The notes beneath the pieces are model-generated. The model made no database searches, was not told where the DNA came from, and saw only the letters and a program-made list of their open reading frames with translations. A DNA stretch of 64,000 bases, taken from the IMG/VR virus record IMGVR_UViG_3300016472_000494; one strand, 5' to 3'. The stretch comes from a virus. Lineage: Duplodnaviria > Heunggongvirae > Uroviricota > Caudoviricetes. The position numbers and the translations under genes were made by a program. Positions 15,510 to 51,629 of the stretch are shown piece after piece. Within the stretch, counting starts at the first letter, position 1. Each line of letters starts with the position of its first letter.

Positions 15510-15965
15510 TTAACATTTGCAGTTTTCCATGTCTCTGCCATAATACCTTCCTAGGATGTTACCATTGTAGCTGTTTGATTTCAGCACATCATGCTTGATC
15601 TGCCAGGACAACTCGCAAAAGGTCAGGTATTTTTTAGTGCAGCAGAGCTCAAGGATCTCTCGTTTAAAATTCTCAGGTCCCAGTCTTGCTACATCATGTT
15701 TCAGGTCAGCTGAAGAACCATGATATGTAAGCCAATCAGACTCTTTGACAACCTTTTTAAAGATTTTTCTGGTACCTGTAGTTGTCTTTTCTCTTTTTGA
15801 TAGTCTTGTTTTCCTTGAGGAGTGAAGACTTTTTTTACCAATGTAAAACTTGTCAGTTTTTAGATTAGTGATTTTGTAGACAAAACCTACAATTTCATTG
15901 TGGTTAGGCAGATCTTCTAATTGCAGAACAGCTTTGCCTGTAAGAGAATAAATCCAATGGTTCAT
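15510..15965 (-). CDS. free-standing GIY-YIG homing-endonuclease-like protein
   Basis: 151 aa; GFVYKITNLKTDKFYIGKKS matches GIY-x10-YIG; inserted between exonuclease-like and primase genes. Confidence 0.5.
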   Translation of the reverse strand: MNHWIYSLTGKAVLQLEDLPNHNEIVGFVYKITNLKTDKFYIGKKSLHSSRKTRLSKREKTTTGTRKIFKKVVKESDWLTYHGSSADLKHDVARLGPENFKREILELCCTKKYLTFCELSWQIKHDVLKSNSYNGNILGRYYGRDMENCKC

Positions 15966-30053: not shown

Positions 30054-30411
30054 TAAGTTTTAAGTGCCACTCCGCACCACCAAACGCTAAAACAGCTGCC
30101 AAATGTTCATCAGTCATTTCAGCAAGTTTTACCCAGGTGAGTGGTTCTTTGCCACTTTTACCTCTTGAGCCACGTGTAGCATGCTGTCTTACTTTTTCAA
30201 AAGGTTCATCTGCATATACAGTCAAAAGCTCAATTAATTCAAGATCTAATGCACCATAATGCAGATAGCTCATACCTCCATCAACAGAAGCATGATTAGG
30301 ACAACCACAAGTATTGTAATCATGGCGATGACGACTCACAATTGTTTTTGAACAAACTTTGCATAAAACAGCGTTATACACAATCTGTCTTTCAGTTATT
30401 TCTTTACTCAT
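29992..30411 (-). CDS. Cys/His-rich hypothetical protein (possible zinc-binding)
   Basis: 139 aa; CKVCSK...HRHDYNTCGCPNH. Confidence 0.4.
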   Translation of the reverse strand: MSKEITERQIVYNAVLCKVCSKTIVSRHRHDYNTCGCPNHASVDGGMSYLHYGALDLELIELLTVYADEPFEKVRQHATRGSRGKSGKEPLTWVKLAEMTDEHLAAVLAFGGAEWHLKLIAKELQYRHENNISITDPET

Positions 30412-41936: not shown

Positions 41937-42032
41937 GATAAGTAATATTTTAAGTTTAAACTGTACAAGTTTTAACAACAACAAGTGAGGTGCCTGGGTA
42001 TGATAAGCCAGACACCTTGCACTTGCCGCGTT

Positions 42033-42212
42033 CCCTCTGCACTCAGTTGTTATTGGTTGTACTCAAGACCAATATTCATCACATCTTACCTATCAGGACA
42101 TCCTGTGGTATTATCCACATTACTACCTGCTTTTTATGCAGCACCCATAACTTATGGGTAGTGAGGAGACGCTCTGTGTGATTACAACTGCTCATCCTTG
42201 GGAGGCTGATTA
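42033..42212 (+). repeat. composite structured repeat, unit A (left arm CCCTCTGCACTCAGTTGT ... right arm TTACAACTG plus hairpin)
   Basis: left arm 42033-42056; right arm ttacaactg 42182-42190 then imperfect hairpin tcatcc-ttggga-ggctga 42191-42209. Confidence 0.6.
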
Positions 42213-42427
42213 ACTAGCCGTTAGTGTACATTTCTGTTCCTCATACGGTACGTTTATTAATCAGTGTGGTTTTACATCTTAGCTGAACAGTGTACATACA
42301 AGTGGGTTATCCCTTGCTTGATTGCAATGAGCTGGTCTAAGAAGTCTTCATATCCACGTGAGACTGGTGCATTAAACGCGTGTCTTTCCACGCTGTCACC
42401 ACGTTTCTTGTCTTAGTGTGGTTAACT

Positions 42428-42630
42428 TGGTAGTCAGGACAGGAATCGAACCTGTATGCCATTTGTGGTTTTCTCTTATTACTGTTGCAACAGTACCACC
42501 AGCGTTTTGCAAATTCTGTATGTTGTCCGCTTACTTCTAACATACAATATCAACCTTGCGGGTCAATCTTCGCGTCTACCATATCCAGCACATACTATTA
42601 CTCTTTGTGCCTTCATTCCGCCACCTGACT
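42428..42630 (-). ncRNA. tRNA-like element 1: acceptor stem, T-arm and encoded CCA present, but ~200 nt long with an insertion in the D-region (disrupted or intron-bearing tRNA, or tRNA-derived sRNA)
   Basis: minus strand 5'-AGUCAGG UG GCGG AAU [33-nt insert] UGGUAGACGC ... ACAGG UUCGAUU CCUGU CCUGACU A CCA-3'; acceptor arms exactly complementary; T-loop GGTTCGATTCC seen as ggaatcgaacc at 42441-42451. Confidence 0.45.
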
Positions 42631-42825
42631 AGGTAACACCCTAATTTATCCAACTTACAGGTGTTGTGGCTGTCCTCATCACTGAGTTAGGACTAATCAT
42701 TCGTCCTTACAAGGTCGGGCTGACTTGCCCTGGTGTTCTGCCTATACACCAATGTACGTTCCCATACGGACATCACTCCGTTTCTCATCATGTTGGGCAC
42801 ACTATCCGTTGTATGTTTCGGAACG

Positions 42826-42967
42826 TGTAGTCAGGACAGGATTTGAACCTGTAAGCAGGATTAAGGTCATGCTTTTTCAAGTTTTCCAGTATCCACTTCA
42901 AGTTCCCTTACCTTTGAAGCGATAACTTTCAAATTCACTTGGCGTCTACCAATTCCGCCACCTGACT
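42826..42967 (-). ncRNA. tRNA-like element 2 (paralogue of element 1, 137 nt): canonical acceptor, D-arm and T-arm with a ~60-nt insertion in the anticodon region
   Basis: 5'-AGUCAGG UG GCG GAAUUGGUAGA CGC ... ACAGG UUCAAAU CCUGU CCUGACU A-3'; D-loop with GG; candidate anticodon stem CAAGU...ACUUG split by an insert. Confidence 0.45.
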
Positions 42968-43364
42968 GTGTTGAGGATGAGAAGTCCTCTGTGTTGTAGA
43001 GGTAAGTTGCAGAAGCGACTCTCTTGACATTCCTTTCTCAAGGGAACAACACAATGTCTAAAAACAACTACAGTGCTACGTTTCAAGTGGCTTATTAAGC
43101 CTTCGTAGGTACAATAAGGTGATCAACCCTCGTAAATACCCTTCATGCACTGCAGTTGTTTTAGACAAAGTATAGCACTAAGTTGTAACTGGTTCTGCGT
43201 CATAAATCCCCTATTTAACTCCACAAAGGAGATTACAACAGCTTACCTCGTATTAATACCCTTTGCACTCAGCTGTGCGGTCAGATTGTTAAGGTATAAT
43301 AGAGAATTAGTAAGTTTTCATGCTAAAAGCATACTTTAACCAGTATGCCAGTGGTGGGTCAAAC

Positions 43365-43733
43365 CTAAACTAGGTTTTTGGTTACCTCTGCTCTCTCAGC
43401 AGGAGTAAGTCTTGTGAACAGCGTTCTGACAAATGAAACAAGCTGAATGTTATGCTCAGACATGTTTGTTTGCTTAGTTTTACTACTATTGACTGCTGTT
43501 TTTTTCTGGACATTGACTGAAACTGTTGGTTGCGAGTCAGCGTTTCTCAGATTTGTGTAATAGTGAATGGCAACAGCTTGAGCAGTCCGGTTGGTAGCGC
43601 GTGCTGCTTTATCAAATGCCTTACAAAGTGTTCTGTACTTCCGTCGCTTGTTTACAATAGACATGACAAGAGTTTCTTGTTCTTTTGTCCAGAAGCGCGG
43701 GTGCAATGATTGTGAGCTAGTAGGATTTTTCAC
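43365..43733 (-). CDS. hypothetical basic protein
   Basis: 122 aa within the repeat island. Confidence 0.4.
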   Translation of the reverse strand: MKNPTSSQSLHPRFWTKEQETLVMSIVNKRRKYRTLCKAFDKAARATNRTAQAVAIHYYTNLRNADSQPTVSVNVQKKTAVNSSKTKQTNMSEHNIQLVSFVRTLFTRLTPAERAEVTKNLV

Positions 43734-43747
43734 AGGATTTGAAGATT

Positions 43748-43999
43748 TTAGGGTTGTAAAATAAAAAAGCCAATTTTGTCTAACGCGTCACCTGGGTCGT
43801 TGTCTAAGACAACATACTCATCACCATCAAGGTCCTCAAAAATAGACGCTAAAGTGTAACCATTGTCTTTGTAATGGGTAGCAGTAGAGCATTCTTCAGG
43901 ACAAAAGAGTCTGAAATTGCCAGTTTCAGAGTCATCTTCATGAAGTTTTATCAGTTGAGAACCGTGTTGTTTAAAGAACTCATCAACAGTCATTGTCAT
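43748..43999 (-). CDS. hypothetical acidic protein
   Basis: 83 aa. Confidence 0.35.
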   Translation of the reverse strand: MTMTVDEFFKQHGSQLIKLHEDDSETGNFRLFCPEECSTATHYKDNGYTLASIFEDLDGDEYVVLDNDPGDALDKIGFFILQP

Positions 44000-44252
44000 C
44001 AGGTAAACTTTTAGGTTGTGAATTTTGATCGCGAAGTTTTTTGATGCAAAAATCCAGGTTGAGTTTGTAAGTCTCTAACTTGATGATCATGGATGAATCA
44101 GTGCATTCAGCTATGTCATACTCAACCCACTCTTTCATATCCTCAAGGGTATTAAGAACCTCATAATCAACATAGGCTTTAATACCAAAAGAAGACAAGC
44201 TAATCACACTCACAAAAAGTGTGAGAAATACAAATAGTTTTTTAAGGTTCAT
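43983..44252 (-). CDS. secreted small protein
   Basis: 89 aa; signal peptide MNLKKLFVFLTLFVSVISLSSFG. Confidence 0.4.
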   Translation of the reverse strand: MNLKKLFVFLTLFVSVISLSSFGIKAYVDYEVLNTLEDMKEWVEYDIAECTDSSMIIKLETYKLNLDFCIKKLRDQNSQPKSLPDDNDC

Positions 44253-44515
44253 GTTAATTACAAGATTTTAGTGGTCAAAATAATACAAGTAGAAATTTAG
44301 AGCACCAGCGCCAGACATACCAACGCCGCTCGTTGGTCTGCTTTTATCGTTTGATTGTAGTTTGTACCAGGTCAGAAACATTGGGGTGCTTCTGTGTTAA
44401 AGCGCCTGTACAAACCAGAGGAGAGGAGCGGAAATATTTTTCTCACAGATCTGCCTGGCGCGGGTGACTCTAATGCTTCTACAGGGAGAGAGAGACAAGA
44501 CAACAAGGTCTTCCT

Positions 44516-44640
44516 CTTAGCACTTAGTTGTAACAAGTGGCACCCATTTGCAGGTAGGTGTTCTCCAATGGTTTCCTATTACAGCATACGTTCTGTAATA
44601 TTCCCTGCTTGTTCTTGTTACAACTGCTCACGGTAGTGAG
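44516..44640 (+). repeat. composite structured repeat, unit D
   Basis: left arm cttagcacttagttgtaa 44516-44537; right ttacaactg 44618-44626 plus hairpin ctcac-ggta-gtgag 44627-44640. Confidence 0.55.
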
Positions 44641-44865
44641 TTAGTGCTTTGAGAATAATATAAACAGTTGCAATAGTAAGATTAGTGGCGCTATTGCCCT
44701 TAATACCTTGCTACCAAAATACAACTATGCTGCCTAGCATACAACCTCAAGCCATAAATGAATGGCATAGTCAGGTTTACATAGTACTTAATGTGTAGAC
44801 TTACTAGTAAGATAAGTTAATCTACTATTGCAACTGGTGTTTAAAAAAGATCCCTCTGCACTCAG

Positions 44866-45072
44866 TTATAATGTATAAGAAACACCAAAATGTTGCTCAA
44901 TAGCATATAGAGCTTCCCAATCATTACCTAACATTTTATTGTCTATGCAGACATCAACATTTAATTCTTTAGCTCTTTTCCATACATGAAAAGCTTCTTC
45001 AGGTGTATGTGCTATTGAAAATAGCTGCATATATTCTTCACCTGATTCTTTGTTTTTAATAAATTCCACCAT
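44866..45072 (-). CDS. small hypothetical protein
   Basis: 68 aa; its stop is overlapped by a left-arm repeat copy (44849-44873). Confidence 0.3.
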   Translation of the reverse strand: MVEFIKNKESGEEYMQLFSIAHTPEEAFHVWKRAKELNVDVCIDNKMLGNDWEALYAIEQHFGVSYTL

Positions 45073-45118
45073 ATAGTTAAGTTTTATAGTTAAGTTTTAA
45101 GTTTTACAAATCTATTAA

Positions 45119-45269
45119 CCCCTCTGCACTCAGTTGTAATATAGTTTTCACAAAACATGGCTTTACATAGTCATTATGCTATGAAGGTCTTCACCTCACG
45201 GATGTTTGTCACTTTTATTACAACTGCTCACCCTTGGGAAGTGAGTTATGGTGCATTAAAATTGGTTGA
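45119..45269 (+). repeat. composite structured repeat, unit B (most complete copy)
   Basis: left arm ccctctgcactcagttgtaa 45119-45138; right ttacaactg 45218-45226; hairpin ctcac-ccttgggaa-gtgag 45227-45245; tail ttatggtgcattaaaattggttga 45246-45269. Confidence 0.65.
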
Positions 45270-45397
45270 TAACCCACAACCTTTCTAAAGGGGTTCTAGT
45301 AAAAGCTATAACCAAATGGTTAATACAAGGCAGCTAAACCTAGAAACAATTGCAAGACTGAATCTGCCTATCACATTCTTGCTTTACAATTAATATT

Positions 45398-45549
45398 CCC
45401 TCTGCACTCAGTTGTAACAGGGTCCGGTGGTACCTATTTCAATTACCTTTTTTCAAGGAGCTATTTCAGCCTTACTTTCAACCCTTTACGTACAGGTTAC
45501 TTCAGTAGTGTTATTCACACTGGTAATTATTACAACTGAGTGCAAAGAG
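45398..45549 (+). repeat. composite repeat, unit E: perfect-type terminal inverted repeats (~20 bp) flanking ~110 bp (MITE-like)
   Basis: ccctctgcactcagttgtaa (45398-45417) versus ttacaactgagtgcaaagag (45530-45549), reverse complement with a 2-nt indel. Confidence 0.65.
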
Positions 45550-45792
45550 AATAAGTTAATCAAGAAATGAAAAAGACATTGTATGGCAAAAACTGATAGA
45601 TTATAGCCATTTAGTGTCAAAATTTGAGCGTTCTGAGAGGTTTTTGAGGTGATTAAGAGGATGAGGAGGGGTGTGCTACCACTCACGTAACTTCTTGCTC
45701 ATCAACAACTTACTGAACACTTATGTGTCAAAAAAGCAACTGAGAAAGCGCTGTGTAAATACAGCAACTTTCTCAGAAACTTGTTCAAGTGC

Positions 45793-46284
45793 TTAAAGAC
45801 TTGCGTTTTTAGCACTACGTACAGCGTTGAACTCACGTACAGCGTCTGTATTATTATGCTGTACATAGACGTCGTGGTCTTGACCTGTTGGGTCATACAC
45901 AGAAAACCTGATGATGCGTTCACCGTCTACGCAGAGTTCTATACCGTCTTGTCCTGCGCGTTTGACAAAACTGTCAAGGGCTTGAGAAGCGGGGAGACTC
46001 TTGTTGGCAAACTGCTCAAAGAGACTCTCAGGTACTTCGCTCTCCAGGTACTCTTTGATGACGATGTGTCCTGGAAGCGACAGTGTCTTGTTAGACTGCA
46101 CAAAGCGCTGTAGCACTTCGCACTTAGCGCGTAACAGGGTACTACGCTTGCGTTCTCTAATCCAAGTCCCTTCAGGGATCATAGAGGATTGAGACAGTTG
46201 TAAATAGCCGTACTCAGGTTTGTTTTTAAACGGAGTAATGAGGCTGCCTGTGGTGGAGTTGGGGATGATTTGAACTTGAGACAT
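45793..46284 (-). CDS. hypothetical protein, paralogue 1 of a tandem pair (start at Met 46284)
   Basis: 163 aa from MSQVQIIPNSTTGSLITPF...; ~45% identity by eye with the 46540..47040 product; the track N-terminal extension is low-complexity and lacks homology. Confidence 0.5.
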   Translation of the reverse strand: MSQVQIIPNSTTGSLITPFKNKPEYGYLQLSQSSMIPEGTWIRERKRSTLLRAKCEVLQRFVQSNKTLSLPGHIVIKEYLESEVPESLFEQFANKSLPASQALDSFVKRAGQDGIELCVDGERIIRFSVYDPTGQDHDVYVQHNNTDAVREFNAVRSAKNASL

Positions 46285-46317
46285 AGGTAAAAAGTTTGGT
46301 TTTAAGTGTGAATTGAT

Positions 46318-46400
46318 GGGGGGGTTGAAGGTTGTCTGTACTAAGTCTGTTCTCAGAGTTGTACTCAAAGGGGGTTTGAGGGTTGTGTTGAGGGTTGTAC
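46318..46400. repeat. G-rich degenerate tandem repeats GGGTTGA(A/G)GGTTGT upstream of paralogue 1
   Basis: ggggttgaaggttgt (46321-46335), gggtttgagggttgt (46371-46385), gttgagggttgt (46386-46397); similar ggggggttgcaggttgcag at 47089-47107 upstream of paralogue 2 and gggggttgaaggttgg at 47736-47751. Confidence 0.55.
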
Positions 46401-46539
46401 TTAAGAAAAAAAACAGACGCCCTCGTGAATTGTGAGCAGACACCAGAGCACTTTCTTCACTTGTGGTTTAGAAAAAACTGACCTGACTTGCACCAAGGCT
46501 GGGAGACGAATCTCCCAACCTGGTGTGTCAAGTTCAGCG

Positions 46540-47040
46540 TTACGCAGGCAGTGTGGCACTGTTTGCGTTGACAGCTGCGCGGAACTCTGCGACCTCACTG
46601 ACATTGTCGTGGGCTACAGAGATATCAGCCTGCGTGCCAGAGGCATCGTAGTCTGAGAAACGCAGAATGCGCTGACCGTTTTTGGTGAGCGCAACGCCGT
46701 CTTTGCCTGCGCGTTTCAGGAACGGCTGAACAGCCTGCTCGTAAGAGAGGTTCTTGTTCAGGCGCGTAGCATAGTTTTCAGGGAGTTCGTCTTCAAGGAA
46801 CTCGCGAACAACAATGCGTCCTGGCAGCGTGAGCGTTTTGCCGTGCTGTGCTACAAAGCTCTCCAAGACAGAGGTCTTAGCGCGTAGCAAAGCACTGCGG
46901 CGTTTTTCCTCCAACCAGCCGCCGTCGCGCTGAATCATTTCAACAGACTGCAGTTGGAGGTAGCTGTAGTCTGGGTTGCTGTTAAACGGTGTGATAAGAG
47001 CACCTGTCTGAGCATTGGGGGTGATTTGAACTTTGTTCAT
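46540..47040 (-). CDS. hypothetical protein, paralogue 2 of the tandem pair
   Basis: 166 aa; MNKVQITPNAQTGALITPF...; shared blocks LLRAK, TL(S/T)LPG(H/R)IV(I/V)(K/R)E(Y/F)LE, KRAG(Q/K)DG. Confidence 0.5.
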   Translation of the reverse strand: MNKVQITPNAQTGALITPFNSNPDYSYLQLQSVEMIQRDGGWLEEKRRSALLRAKTSVLESFVAQHGKTLTLPGRIVVREFLEDELPENYATRLNKNLSYEQAVQPFLKRAGKDGVALTKNGQRILRFSDYDASGTQADISVAHDNVSEVAEFRAAVNANSATLPA

Positions 47041-47130
47041 GGTAGTTTGGATTTGGGTTTAGTGAAACAAAATGAACTGAATGAAAAGGGGGGTTGCAGG
47101 TTGCAGTGAGCCACAAAGGCTGTGAGAGGA

Positions 47131-47358
47131 CTAATCCTCCCACAACCATGTGCCTACAGATACCAGAAAGCCTATGAACATAAGTAAACTCATGAACCAC
47201 ATAGGTGCTGCGTCGCTGACGTCTGCAAATGTCACGCTGCTGCTAAGCATGCTGATAGCGCCTGCAAGGAACGCATGCCAGATAACTGTCATAGTACCTG
47301 CAACGAGTAGCCATGCAAGTACCTGGGCAGGCATGACGAAATTTTTGATCTTGTACAT
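47131..47358 (-). CDS. small membrane protein (2-3 TM)
   Basis: 75 aa, hydrophobic. Confidence 0.35.
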   Translation of the reverse strand: MYKIKNFVMPAQVLAWLLVAGTMTVIWHAFLAGAISMLSSSVTFADVSDAAPMWFMSLLMFIGFLVSVGTWLWED

Positions 47359-47586
47359 GAGAATTGGGTTTATTGGTTAATGGTGTATCAGTGTGGTTTC
47401 ACATCTTAGATATTTTACAAGAGTTAAGCCTTGATATAAATCTGGTTTCCTCAAAACTAAGAAGTCTTCATACCCAAAGGTTAGTGCAAAGAGAAATTTG
47501 ATTAACTAGACGAGTCTGCTATCGTCCACCTACGTTTTAGTGCAACCTTTCTTGAGGTGTAGTTTCGGTTAATCAAATGAGTTATC

Positions 47587-47730
47587 TCTTTGCACTTAGT
47601 TGTAAGTCTGCCTGGCAAATATTATTACAGTTTAAATCGTGATCTGATTAGTACACGAAGGCTGTAAACCAGGTATTTCTTACAACTGTCAGCCCTTGGG
47701 AAGCTGAAATGGTGCATTAAAATTGGTTGA
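47587..47730 (+). repeat. composite structured repeat, unit C
   Basis: left arm ctctttgcacttagttgtaag 47587-47607; right ttacaactg 47680-47688; hairpin tcagc-ccttgggaa-gctga 47689-47707; tail aatggtgcattaaaattggttga 47708-47730. Confidence 0.65.
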
Positions 47731-47832
47731 ACACCAATGGGGGTTGAAGGTTGGTCAAACGCTTTAAAGACCAAGAGAGACGCTCCTGTGCAGAGCGTCC
47801 CTCCTGTGTCTGCGTTGCAGGTTGGATAACTT

Positions 47833-48036
47833 TTATCCATTGACATTCACGCAGTAGTCTCTGAAGTAAGCAATGGCTTCCTTCATAGTCTTAGCAATGA
47901 TGTCGTGTCCTGCAATGTGCCATGTTTGATACATAGTGCAAAGGATTTGACCTGCATCACCAGGGGGGTCAAGGGTTGCTGTGTTTGGTGGGGGGATGGT
48001 TGTCATAGGGACTCCTCCCACTCTCATCCTCATCAC
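47833..48036 (-). CDS. small hypothetical protein
   Basis: 67 aa. Confidence 0.25.
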   Translation of the reverse strand: MMRMRVGGVPMTTIPPPNTATLDPPGDAGQILCTMYQTWHIAGHDIIAKTMKEAIAYFRDYCVNVNG

Positions 48037-51527: not shown

Positions 51528-51600
51528 GCCACTTTAGCTCAGATGGTAGAGCGACTGATTTGTAATCAGTAGGTCGTGGGTTCAATTCCTACAAGTGGCT
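51528..51600 (+). tRNA. tRNA-Thr (anticodon UGU)
   Basis: 73 nt; acceptor GCCACUU/AAGUGGC, D-arm GCUC-AGAUGGUA-GAGC, anticodon arm ACUGA-UUUGUAA-UCAGU, T-arm GUGGG-UUCAAUU-CCUAC, discriminator U; CCA not encoded. Confidence 0.85.
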
Positions 51601-51629
51601 CTAATTTTTCTTAAACCAACTCCAACCCT

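Follow-up and report, generated by a model that had tools for sequence, protein, structure and literature searches.

Predicted twister-type ribozyme cores and tRNA-Leu-like shells with hypervariable structured inserts in a non-coding island of a distant crAss-like phage

Results

The island and its protein genes

The window analyzed in this study, by which we mean the whole 64,000-nucleotide stretch of the IMG/VR record IMGVR_UViG_3300016472_000494, belongs to a phage that was identified from its ORFs for terminase, portal, major capsid protein, DNA polymerase, RNR and PhoH, and its terminase is ~25% identical to those of crAss-like, Flavobacterium and Cellulophaga phages. Computed with the ORFs that are conserved in relatives, the coding share is 38% between 41990 and 47800 (3578 nt non-coding) versus 91% in the rest of the window, which bears out the collapse in coding density reported in the original prediction. 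That prediction also held four stretches of the interval to be free of ORFs of ≥60 aa, but mechanical ORFs of 63–80 aa are present there, for example at 41990-42181, 42725-42925, 43145-43339 and 44394-44636 on the plus strand and at 42337-42543, 45486-45686 and 47625-47846 on the minus strand. These ORFs overlap RNA elements, and at least the last of them lies mostly inside a segment (47373-47722) that is missing from a ~90%-identical relative, L001. Reassignment of TAG, TGA or TAA gave no long ORF spanning 41990-43360 (longest 163–166 aa), and several shorter ORFs appeared across the island. Assembly-collapsed repeats, raised earlier as an alternative, do not account for the island, as it is collinear in three contigs of other metagenomes (L001–L003).

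The protein genes and the features outside the repeat units and tRNA-like elements are as follows:

42970..43170, minus strand (by context): structured non-coding module with a 16-bp inverted repeat, 43061-43076 with 43147-43162
43365-43664, 43748-43999 and 43983-44252, minus strand: three small conserved protein genes (tblastn)
44270..44510, minus strand: structured non-coding module (z = -4.7; 0/200 shuffles fold equally well)
44866-45072, minus strand: ORF68
45560..45790, minus strand: structured region directly 3' of paralogue A (z = -3.7 on the minus strand, -4.1 on the plus strand)
45793-46284 (163 aa) and 46540-47040 (166 aa), minus strand: tandem paralogue genes, 51% identical
47131..47358, minus strand: small conserved ORF of 75 aa
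46320-46334, 46371-46385, 47089-47103, 47739-47753 and 47964-47978, minus strand: five copies of the C-rich motif CAACCUUCAACCCCC

The three small genes are conserved in L001, L002, L003, L028 and L009 and had no Pfam or PHROG match. ORF68 has 95.6% amino acid identity to its copy in L066, where its 291-nt cassette is 91% identical. The tandem paralogue pair that had been predicted is present, and its family is confined to this phage group. The G-run motif GGGGGTTGAAGGTTG noticed earlier is likewise over-represented (6 matches versus 1.2 expected); its minus-strand reading is CAACCUUCAACCCCC, the first three copies of which lie ~35–100 nt upstream of the starts of both paralogue genes and may represent a promoter or leader element.

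The inverted-repeat arms of the module at 42970..43170 resemble the P2/P5 sequence of the units described below, and its fold (z = -4.8) scores equally on both strands; the segment that includes it (42947-43356) is 91% identical to L028, as is 44319-44451 at 89%, and the region at 45560..45790 is conserved in L001–L003. The non-coding modules fold far better than their shuffles (z about -4 to -5), whereas three coding control segments do not. The interval, which had been likened to the tRNA and stable-RNA regions of large phages, is a genuine non-coding island of structured RNA.

Repeat arms and twister-type cores

The repeat arm TGCACTCAGTTGTAA, whose partner arm begins TTACAACTG, has 13 matches at ≤3 mismatches versus 4.1 expected, a number that 0 of 100 shuffles reached, and nine of these lie on the plus strand of the island between 42038 and 47605, so that the repeat family in one orientation is real and non-random. 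The original prediction could not assign it to a known element. In their minus-strand reading, however, the arms match the 5' and 3' halves of type-P1 twister-type self-cleaving ribozyme cores, in which cleavage is predicted. The orientation given in the original prediction is therefore antisense to the functional strand.

The minus-strand consensus of the units is P1-U/AA-UGCA-CC-AUAA-P4-UUCCCAAGG-P4'-P5(cargo)-AG-UGCA-GAGGG-P1', with the slash at the predicted cleavage site and the cargo being the insert within P5. The twister class was described in 2014 (Roth et al. 2014; Rfam RF03160, RF03154 and RF02684), and nearly every conserved unpaired nucleotide of the consensus (UAA, UCCCAAG, GAGGG) agrees with the rice twister, UAA-CACU-GCC-AAUG-CCGG-UCCCAAGC-CCGG-AUAAA-AGUG-GAGGG. 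In an expanded subtype (type B), there are two further insertion sites ahead of loop L4. Within the window, U5 and U1 are apparently intact, U7 has a mutated GAGGG, and four or five more copies are partial:

42027..42380, minus strand: U1, expanded (type B) twister-type ribozyme placed by motif positions; P1 42380-42375 with 42032-42027 (CGCGUU/AACGCG); predicted cleavage between U42374 and A42373; P2 UGCA 42371-42368; CC 42367-42366; P4 5' strand 42362-42358; extra domain P4a 42357-42337 with 42282-42266; extra hairpin P3x 42265-42256 with 42217-42206; L4 (CUCCCAAGG) 42204-42196; P4 3' strand 42195-42191; P5 42190-42182 with 42052-42044, enclosing cargo 42053-42181; GUGCA-GAGGG 42042-42033
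43174..43290, minus strand: U2, partial twister-derived unit without an L4 loop; P5-like stem carrying 44 nt of cargo; orphan 3' half AGUGCAAAGGG (43269-43259)
44510..44659, minus strand: U3, twister-derived scaffold of P2, P4 and P5 with 84-nt cargo
44665..44836, minus strand: U3b, cargo hairpin without ribozyme core; covarying P5-type stem CAGUUGCAA/UUGCAACUG
44871-44852, minus strand: U4, orphan twister 3' half (UUAUAACUG-AGUGCAGAGGG) directly after ORF68
45112..45266, minus strand: U5, apparently intact type-A twister-type ribozyme; predicted cleavage between U45258 and A45257; P4 45245-45241 with 45231-45227; L4 (UUCCCAAGG) 45240-45232; P5 45226-45218 with 45139-45131, enclosing cargo 45140-45217; GUGCA-GAGGG 45129-45120
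45394..45556, minus strand: U6, long hairpin of P2 and P5 arms only; 24-nt inverted repeat around a 112-nt cargo, without P4/L4 (z = -5.1)
47373..47581, minus strand: X, pieces of type-B insertion domains, namely two from P4a (47469-47457 and 47409-47393) plus a stem resembling P3x
47582..47727, minus strand: U7, type-A twister-type unit whose 5' half, P4, L4 and P5 are intact; would-be cleavage site between U47719 and A47718; GAGGG mutated to AAGAG (47590-47586)

In U3, the P4 loop UACC replaces UUCCCAAGG, so the pseudoknots cannot form and the unit is presumably non-catalytic. The mutation in U7 means that this unit is probably impaired; its orthologue in L006, to which it is 95% identical, is intact, and X together with U7 forms the 350-nt block missing from L001. 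U3b (z = -3.7 on the minus strand, -4.4 on the plus strand) matches L053 and a 151-nt cargo unit of L035 at 85–87% identity.

Both pseudoknots and the stems P1, P4 and P5 show covariation. Across 42 units, 90.9% of cells are paired compared with 82.7% in shuffles and 34–45% when partners are slid; all five P4 pairs covary, pseudoknot T1 (L4 CCC with GGG) changes from CG to AU three times, pseudoknot T2 (L4 GG with CC) is 97.6% paired, and P1 has many pair types. A CCA prefix is invariably accompanied by a UGG loop. When P1 partners were shuffled, the mean contiguous helix was 3.01 +/- 0.18, compared with 3.57 for the true partners, although P1 is weak (2–3 bp) in both type-A copies of the window. 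The 129 unique complete copies have 25 P4 stem types between them, with P4 fully paired in 123, and the type-B architecture, in which P3x and P4a covary, occurs in 10 unique copies. Since P2 and most of P5, whose base is near-invariant (CAGUUGUAA/UUACAACUG), never vary, they supply no covariation evidence. Minimum free energy folding of the minus strand recovered the twister-type fold for U5 (P2, P4 and P5) and U7, and P1, P2 and P3x for U1. Units of this type occur in at least 120 IMG/VR contigs.

The three Rfam 15 twister models (RF03160, RF03154 and RF02684) gave no match on the window, on 17 loci or on the shortest natural copies, with P5 of 19–59 nt; the GOLLD and ROOL models were likewise silent within the window. 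A ceiling on Infernal hit length, to which the failure of a purpose-built model to span the cargo points, would account for missed long copies, but not for those of 75–100 nt.

tRNA-Leu-like shells

The two tRNA-like elements that had been predicted on the minus strand are real:

42431..42630, minus strand: shell T1; acceptor stem AGUCAGG/CCUGACU plus A73
42828..42967, minus strand: shell T2; elongated arm at the anticodon position without a 7-nt anticodon loop

Shell T2, which has a short hairpin at the variable-arm position, passes the gathering threshold of the Rfam tRNA model (33.7 bits versus 29; E 3e-4) with a 76-nt insertion, and shell T1 has the same acceptor and T arms (T arm ACAGG-UUCGAUU-CCUGU), a D arm with a ~34-nt insertion, and a structured cargo of ~120 nt that replaces the anticodon and variable arms. 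Alignment of shell T1 with L001 and L099 revealed four compensatory pairs, one of them in the T arm (CG to UA), and comparison of shell T2 with its L236 homologue revealed eight, three in the acceptor stem. ARAGORN called neither shell; with introns allowed, it assigned scattered "anticodons" to such elements. A total of 149 unique shells of 50–190 nt, up to six within 3.4 kb, were found in at least 120 IMG/VR contigs, and only 4 of 85 had any 5-bp/7-nt hairpin at the anticodon position, these without a consistent U33. Lacking an anticodon stem-loop, the shells cannot decode. Both T1 and T2 consist of a constant frame and a variable insert, a design that they share with the twister-type units.

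Variability and exchange of the inserts

P5 of the twister-type cores carries a structured insert of 40–156 nt, and hardly any two copies have the same one: 100 unique cargos fell into 82 sequence clusters, and the cargos are structured with compensatory changes (four compensatory pairs in the five-member family of the U1 cargo). The cargo at the orthologous U1 site measures 129 nt in the window, 42 nt in L001 and 99 nt in L003, and genomes that are ~90% identical differ in the presence of whole units, the breakpoints falling in the arms. Cargos can also be 90–96% identical between phages whose terminases are ~62% identical, and that of U5 recurs in L049 and L071 at 92–93% identity. Inserts are thus replaced among close relatives and common to distant phages. 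Complementarity of the cargos to the rest of the window did not rise above chance.

Discussion

We consider it probable that the island between 41990 and 47800 consists of small structured RNA genes clustered on the minus strand, with a few small protein genes among them, and that its phage is a distant crAss-like (Bacteroidota-type) one from fresh water. Several observations concern the strand. Of the canonical tRNAs within 3 kb of such units, 22 share the twister-reading strand and two are on the other one, a GOLLD RNA match in L066 is on the twister-reading strand, two C.A mismatches of U6 on the plus strand become G.U wobbles on the minus strand, and G.U pairs outnumber A.C pairs by 30 to 20, a modest signal. 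Promoter and terminator signals did not exceed background.

An unlikely alternative to this cluster of ribozyme-type RNAs is that the twister-like fold, a three-way junction with two pseudoknots, does not cleave and serves as a structural or protein-binding handle that would present the cargo or shield it from nucleases, with RNA ends made by host RNases. Such a handle would fit the failure of curated twister models on even short copies, the extra U in L4 and the non-conserved G-C pair closing P4, as well as U3, U3b, U6 and the mutated U7, which are without catalytic parts yet retain the P2/P5 stem and cargo. The base of P5 and P2 are, moreover, conserved in sequence beyond pairing, which suggests sequence-specific recognition. 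Against it, the conserved nucleotides are those that build the twister active site (the U and A of the cleavage site, the next A, GAGGG, and UCCCAAG in L4), compensatory change keeps both pseudoknots, and a published high-throughput study found natural twisters to be tolerant of many imperfections in P4, at position 1 of L4 and in the auxiliary stems.

The original prediction proposed a novel RNA-based or mobile-DNA system, and only its RNA-based part finds support. It is quite improbable that the units are mobile palindromes at the DNA level (MITE- or REP-like), or recombination or regulatory cassettes resembling the promoter-stem-loops of T4-type phages, with inverted arms that are protein or recombination sites and not RNA helices. 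Terminal inverted repeats of up to 24 nt around 40–156 nt interiors, the gain or loss of units among close relatives at breakpoints within the arms, and the recurrence of a unit in otherwise dissimilar contigs would all suit such elements, but core-to-core recombination fits the RNA cluster too and makes them superfluous. Segments that are unpaired in the hairpins covary (CCC/CCA prefix with GGG/UGG loop; CC with GG), which is sensible only for a folded single strand and inexplicable on duplex DNA, and the hairpin combines a covarying stem with an invariant loop. In addition, Pfam or PHROG scans of ~60 window ORFs revealed no transposase, integrase or reverse transcriptase, the 47373/47722 junction has no clear target-site duplication, and promoter-like and terminator-like sites are at background. 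Decay into functionless tRNA pseudogenes and degenerate repeats, which the truncated or mutated U2, U3, U4, U6, U7 and X and the missing anticodon loops of T1 and T2 might suggest, is very improbable given cores and shells that are near-identical over hundreds of contigs, compensatory changes that preserve the helices of cores, shells and cargos, and the strong folding of the non-coding modules relative to their shuffles, which the coding controls do not show.

The cores share with the type-P1 twister with P5 (Roth et al. 2014) the order P1, UAA with cleavage after the U, 4-bp P2, "NC", P4, L4 of the form U-CCC-AA-GN, optional P5, P2', G-A-GGG and P1', as well as both pseudoknots. Bacterial twisters occur near phage genes, where their role is unknown, and the phage setting of the window units fits this. 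However, elements of the window type are invisible to the Rfam twister models; their P4-closing pair is C-G or A-U, although a G-C pair beside L4 has been described as essentially invariant; L4 has an extra 5' U; and pseudoknot T2 is CC/GG instead of GC/GC. They also differ in a sequence-invariant P5 base bearing a hypervariable structured RNA of 18 to >300 nt, in a subtype with two additional stem insertions ahead of L4, and in their arrays with many partial derivatives that are probably non-catalytic.

The shells resemble bacterial class II tRNA-Leu in their 7-bp acceptor stem, discriminator A73 and T-arm loop UUCGAAU, and their D arm UGGCGGAAUUGGUAGACGC is one that we take to be identical to that of E. 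coli tRNA-Leu. They differ in that variable structured RNA (40–120 nt) occupies the position of the anticodon stem-loop and, in T1, the D loop has an insertion. GOLLD and ROOL are large structured RNAs of unknown function beside tRNAs in phages, often in lake metagenomes, and the GOLLD match in L066 (100 bits, E 4e-25) lies ~600 nt from one of the units, near the ORF68 copy; the window elements, in contrast, are small modular units and not a single large RNA. Theta/HDV-like ribozymes adjoin phage tRNAs and process their transcripts, and MHV68 encodes tRNA-miRNA RNAs, which are tRNA-like fusions. Both share with the window the concept of a self-cleaving or tRNA-like module as the processing signal for an RNA attached to it within a polycistronic viral transcript, but they involve another ribozyme class or host domain and attach a tRNA or pre-miRNA, whereas here a hypervariable insert is nested within the scaffold.

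If the island is an RNA gene cluster as we propose, it would be transcribed leftwards with the flanking genes, and the intact ribozymes U5 and U1 would each cut themselves between U and A at their own 5' edge, freeing a ribozyme-plus-cargo RNA with a 5'-OH and leaving a 2',3'-cyclic phosphate on the upstream RNA. The shells would be excised by host RNase P and 3'-end enzymes and may be recognized by the CCA-adding enzyme and by LeuRS, an enzyme that ignores the anticodon in E. coli. Given the predicted self-cleavage and excision, the frames would be handles for processing and stability and the hypervariable cargos the functional parts. The conserved cores would potentially also act as homology arms for the exchange of cassettes between co-infecting phages. 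Our leading guess, made with low confidence, is that the cargos are decoy or binding RNAs in phage–host or phage–phage conflict. The novelty of the island lies in its hypervariable cargo on ribozyme and tRNA-like scaffolds, combined with cassette-like swapping among phages.

An ORF-poor island in an uncultured phage

The window encodes a terminase, portal, major capsid protein, family-A-type DNA polymerase, RNR, ThyX, PhoH and a CobS/CobT-like pair. Almost every gene between 2.8 and 51.1 kb is on the minus strand, and the plus strand carries the structural module from 52.5 kb onwards. Its terminase is only ~25% identical to those of crAss-like, Flavobacterium and Cellulophaga phages, and its relatives, both the close ones (L001 at ~90% nucleotide identity, L002 and L003 at ~85%) and dozens that are more distant, are IMG/VR contigs of 50–135 kb. 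Searching the island (41990–47800) against deposited phages by blastn gave no match. The sole canonical tRNA in the window, a tRNA-Thr (51528–51601), lies outside the island. At ~41800 the GC content steps from 31–35% (37–41.8 kb) to 40–54% over the island and beyond, and a SegE-like GIY-YIG homing endonuclease gene (15510–15965, minus strand; Pfam PF19835, E 3e-28) sits amid the replication genes.

The low coding density of the original prediction was borne out, as 38% of the island is coding versus 91% elsewhere when only ORFs conserved in relatives are counted. The long stretches proposed to be free of ORFs do contain mechanical ORFs of 63–80 aa, but these overlap RNA elements; reassignment of TAG, TGA or TAA produced no long ORF across the gaps. 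The repeat arm is strongly over-represented (13 matches vs 4.1 expected) and does not occur outside the island, where nine of its copies are on the plus strand. The island also contains the tRNA-like pair, the paralogues (51% identical) and the G-run motif. Collapse of repeats during assembly, which together with a known tRNA cluster had been named as one outcome that would refute the prediction, is not the explanation since the island is collinear in three independent contigs. Rfam scans with both thresholds matched only the tRNA-Thr and, within the island, one tRNA-like element (T2), and no ribozyme.

The features of the island, all read on the minus strand except where no strand is given, are as follows.

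Elements of the island (units U1 to U7, U3b and X)
U1, 42027–42380, minus strand: expanded form with a clean 6-bp P1
U2 and U4, minus strand: orphan pieces
U3, minus strand: P2, P4 and P5 kept, tetraloop instead of L4
U3b, minus strand: P5-type hairpin
U5, 45112–45266, minus strand: intact
U6, minus strand: P2 and P5 hairpin only, around a cargo
U7, 47582–47727, minus strand: complete save for GAGGG changed to AAGAG, predicted to be weak or inactive; its orthologue in contig L006 is intact
X, minus strand: fragment of the insertion domains of the expanded (type B) form
42970–43170, 44270–44510 and 45560–45790: structured non-coding stretches, fold z −3.7 to −4.8 versus shuffles
46320–46334, 46371–46385, 47089–47103, 47739–47753 and 47964–47978, minus-strand reading: copies of CAACCUUCAACCCCC

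Coding control segments did not show this excess of structure. The motif CAACCUUCAACCCCC is the minus-strand reading of the G-run motif, and its first three copies lie ~35–100 nt upstream of the start codons of the paralogue genes (45793–46284 and 46540–47040, minus strand). In L001, which does not have a 350-nt insert present in the window, the 47739–47753 copy is directly upstream of the 47358 gene. CAACCUUCAACCCCC may be a phage promoter or leader element. The paralogue-pair protein had a single named homologue, in a lake MAG labelled Cytophagia; the gene had no family match, and no significant structural neighbour was found although the structural model was confident.

ORF68 (44866–45072, minus strand) is flanked by two twister 3' halves, those of U4 and U5 (44852–45139). 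The P5 5' strand of U5 could pair with either, the CAGUUGUAA/UUAUAACUG pairing needing one G.U only, and pairing with the U4 half would place ORF68 inside an alternative giant P5. The ORF68 cassette (44852–45139) is 91% identical in the related contig L066. That contig also has a match to GOLLD RNA (RF02032) at 1538–1937 on its plus strand (100 bits, E 4e-25, below the gathering score of 150). The match is on the twister-reading strand with a twister unit ~600 nt away, and a copy of ORF68 with 95.6% identity is found at this locus. L066 had the only GOLLD match, and there was none in the window.

A twister-type core read on the minus strand

On the plus strand the units have the order CCCTCTGCACTCAGTTGTAA, a variable 40–156 nt, TTACAACTG, a small hairpin and, further on, GGTGCATTA. 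This composite pattern led to 85 further viral contigs, in which the hairpin stem covaries and the loop CCTTGGGAA is fixed. In these contigs canonical tRNAs within 3 kb of units number 22 on the other strand and 2 on the same strand. In the window that other strand also carries T1 and T2, which are the tRNA-like elements, as well as the flanking genes; the units are therefore read on the window minus strand. A strand test by counting G.U versus A.C pairs gave a weak preference (30 to 20).

The minus-strand consensus is P1, U/AA (the slash marks the predicted cleavage site), UGCA, CC, AUAA, P4 (5 bp), UUCCCAAGG, P4', CAGUUGUAA, cargo, UUACAACUG, AG, UGCA, GAGGG and P1', the cargo being a structured insert enclosed by stem P5. 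The rice twister ribozyme reads UAA-CACU-GCC-AAUG-CCGG-UCCCAAGC-CCGG-AUAAA-AGUG-GAGGG. Twisters as a class have helices P1, P2 and P4 and may have P0, P3 and P5; the other defining features are two pseudoknots, nucleotide conservation in L1 and L4, N/A as the cleavage site, and an 'NC' dinucleotide that forms the small pseudoknot. All of these defining features are present in the phage elements in identical order, and P5, which is optional in the class, is always present in them.

P1, P2 and P4 are arranged canonically around internal loops L1 and L2 and terminal loop L4, as judged by alignment, pair counts and MFE, and minus-strand energy minimisation returned the expected arrangement of P2, P4 and P5 for U5 and U7. 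Across 42 distinct units 90.9% of cells are paired, versus 82.7% in column shuffles and 34–45% with slid partners. P4 is 99.5% paired with covariation in five of five pairs, and P1 is 63% paired with many pair types, its partners pairing better than shuffled ones (mean contiguous helix 3.57 versus 3.01 ± 0.18). P2 has exactly four Watson-Crick pairs, UGCA/UGCA being invariant in 41–42 of 42 units, and a possible fifth pair (C-G) would compete with pseudoknot T2; since P2 and most of P5 are invariant, neither provides covariation support. The predicted cleavage dinucleotide lies in U-A-A, in which both A's are invariant and the U exceeds 90%; the class descriptor is N/A (usually U/A) beside P1 followed by a conserved A.

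Both pseudoknots of the core were found. In pseudoknot T1 (PK2) the CCC of L4 pairs with the GGG of the L1 3' strand (96.8% paired), with CG replaced by AU in three of the 42 aligned units; four unique units combine a CCA prefix with a UGG loop, and no CCA unit occurs without UGG. The GAGGG of the phage units is the rice sequence. Pseudoknot T2 (PK1), between the CC after P2 and the GG of L4, is 97.6% paired and differs from its rice counterpart in being CC/GG rather than GC/GC, the first pair having been flipped in a compensatory manner. The L4 consensus is not reproduced exactly, the phage loop UUCCCAAGG having seven of eight positions identical to rice UCCCAAGC, the eighth compensated, and one extra 5' U. 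The P4 pair closing L4 is C-G (34), A-U (7) or U-A (1) and never G-C, whereas a closing G-C pair has been described as essentially invariant in twisters.

A second scan placed units in at least 120 contigs. Pooling of all loci gave 129 unique complete copies with 25 P4 stem types, fully paired in 123 of the 129, and P5 elements of 18 to >300 nt. Units were inventoried by regular-expression scans; our purpose-built core covariance model, R1, finds the 5' halves but fails to bridge the cargo and is therefore useless for an inventory. The models RF03160, RF03154 and RF02684 had no match, at gathering score or E ≤ 10, in the window, 17 loci or the short copies (L035, L218, L244), and the Rfam twister models missed even the shortest natural copies (P5 of 19–59 nt). 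For long copies the miss can be attributed to the Infernal hit-length limit, as R1 also fails to span the cargo, and for short copies it is probably due to the absent P3, the added P5 and the changed letters of pseudoknot T2 and L4.

Our sequence comparisons thus point to twister-type ribozymes of a variant subfamily, with predicted catalysis. That label was chosen because of the lack of an Rfam match, the P4-closing pair, the extra U in L4 and the invariance of P2 and most of P5. The serious alternative, which we consider rather unlikely, is a twister-like handle that keeps the fold and does not cleave.

U1 represents an expanded form of the putative ribozyme. Two further elements, each with a variable tip, are inserted between its P4 5' strand and L4: P4a, an irregular but conserved stem, and P3x, a second hairpin that covaries. 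Compensatory changes are seen in both of these stems among the ten unique copies that have this architecture. At 30239–30275 (plus strand), within a coding region, an exact twister 5' motif, CUAAUGCACCAUA, is followed by UGCAGA (R1 12.8 bits, E 0.24); with neither L4 nor P4, it is probably a chance occurrence.

tRNA-Leu-like shells

The two tRNA-like elements of the island, T1 (42431–42630) and T2 (42828–42967), have in common AGUCAGG..CCUGACU-A, a D arm of tRNA-Leu type and the T arm ACAGG-UUCGAAU-CCUGU. They thus have the acceptor stem, D arm and T arm with T-loop of a tRNA, but not the 5-bp anticodon stem with a 7-nt loop (U33, purine 37), and ARAGORN called neither. A 5-bp/7-nt hairpin at the position of the anticodon arm was found in only four of 85 family members, and forced ARAGORN calls gave scattered, arbitrary anticodons. 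Intron-containing or anticodon-shifted tRNAs were rejected, there being no consistent anticodon arm. Eight compensatory pairs separate T2 from its homologue in L236, three of them in the acceptor stem, and four occur among T1, L001 and L099, one of them in the T arm. The shells are non-decoding tRNA mimics that have been maintained and in which one arm varies.

The 3' motif of the shell alone matched at least 120 viral contigs, which yielded 149 unique shells of 50–190 nt. As many as six shells with different fillings lie within 3.4 kb. Shells occur in contigs of up to 270 kb, mostly with no island-type twister nearby, and since most shell contigs have no such twister the two families are independent. 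Their spread extends far beyond the phage group of the window (L099 280–3380 and >120 other IMG/VR loci, L091–L169). To our knowledge, these anticodon-less tRNA-Leu-like shells are an undescribed family.

Structured cargos and cassette exchange

The 100 unique P5 inserts fall into 82 sequence clusters, and no common motif or loop was found among these 100 cargos, their loops being heterogeneous. Cargos are nevertheless structured and under selection; in a U1 cargo family from five phages a multi-branched fold is kept by four compensatory changes. Antisense or spacer-like cargo was rejected, as cargos matched the remainder of the window no more than shuffled controls did. A 16-nt exact match of the U5 cargo (45140–45217), AAAACATGGCTTTACA, elsewhere in the window lies at the upper edge of those controls. 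T-arm-like hairpins (for example GGUUCAAGUCC, GCAGUUCGAUUCUGC and GGGUUCAAUUCCC) are present in some P5 cargos (L055, L047) and P3x cargos (L029, L001), so some inserts may be tRNA-derived or use T-loop modules.

The inserts at the orthologous U1 site measure 129, 42 and 99 nt in the window, L001 and L003, respectively, with flank and arms shared by all three. Two segments of the window are additional to the L001 sequence, one of 940 nt (U4, ORF68, U5, U6) and one of 350 nt (X, U7); one breakpoint falls within the TTACAACTG arm of U3 and a second immediately upstream of the 5' edge of U7. The cargos of U1, U5 and U7 are 92–96% identical in contigs whose flanks do not align, and L006, which matches the U7 cargo, has a terminase only ~62% identical. 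As read from these alignments, the pattern of swapped and present or absent inserts is cassette behaviour, for which homologous recombination within the invariant cores would be the simplest mechanism.

Mobile or regulatory cassettes acting as DNA are improbable, since the pseudoknot covariation contradicts a DNA-level role; inverted arms, a MITE feature, are present. A plus-strand reading as promoter/terminator cassettes or MITEs was rejected because of that covariation and because promoter- and terminator-like sites are at background level. No clear target-site duplication was seen at the one clean indel junction examined, and the ~60 window ORFs scanned, the window being part of the genome only, included no transposase; nor did they include an RNA ligase, RtcB, RNase, RT or recombinase. 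Decay, as which the partial units might be read, is highly improbable, being contradicted by conservation and compensatory change.

In bacterial genomes the twister pattern matched only L089 and L090, MAG contigs labelled Alphaproteobacteria (Lake Lanier) and Saccharibacteria; because these are probably mis-binned phage DNA, no host is named from them.

Proposed function and significance

The architecture, covariation, distribution, strand bias and cassette exchange of these elements are observed, and the ribozyme core appears to be a reusable handle with a different structured RNA in almost every copy, arrayed with tRNA-like shells of the same building principle. The island would be co-transcribed leftward, each intact core would cleave itself at U/A, and the shells would be processed by RNase P and 3'-end processing, so that the scaffolds would act as processing and stability handles and the cargos as effectors. 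Tentatively, and with low confidence, we propose that these phages keep a hypervariable structured-RNA library displayed on two processing scaffolds, namely twister cores that cleave themselves and tRNA-Leu-like shells that the host processes. The inserts would be exchanged as cassettes through recombination in the invariant arms and, in conflict with hosts or other phages, would serve as decoys, sponges or aptamers.

Twisters are known, including near phage genes where their role is unknown, and a preprint reports hatchet, another self-cleaving class, to be largely confined to Crassvirales. In the literature we found no description of a large, Rfam-invisible twister subfamily with a sequence-invariant P5 and hypervariable structured inserts, of an expanded form with three insertion sites, of such arrays with partial derivatives, of a parallel anticodon-less tRNA-Leu shell family or of such cassette exchange across divergent phages.

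The elements occur in hundreds of uncultured phage contigs and are unannotated by current Rfam models; tRNA finders and Rfam will miss them or mislabel them as odd or intron-containing tRNAs. The shells may still serve as substrates for RNase P, the CCA-adding enzyme and LeuRS, and bear on how phages exploit the host tRNA machinery. If the cores cleave, they constitute a large natural data set on the tolerance of twisters in P5 and L4, and their testable function would be self-processing and delivery of diverse small RNAs. The question of what twisters, and most other small ribozymes that cleave themselves, do in bacteria and phages dates back to their discovery. If it exists, the RNA library would parallel integron or CRISPR-style cassette arrays at the RNA level, and the twister ribozymes of bacteria and phages would gain a definite biological role.
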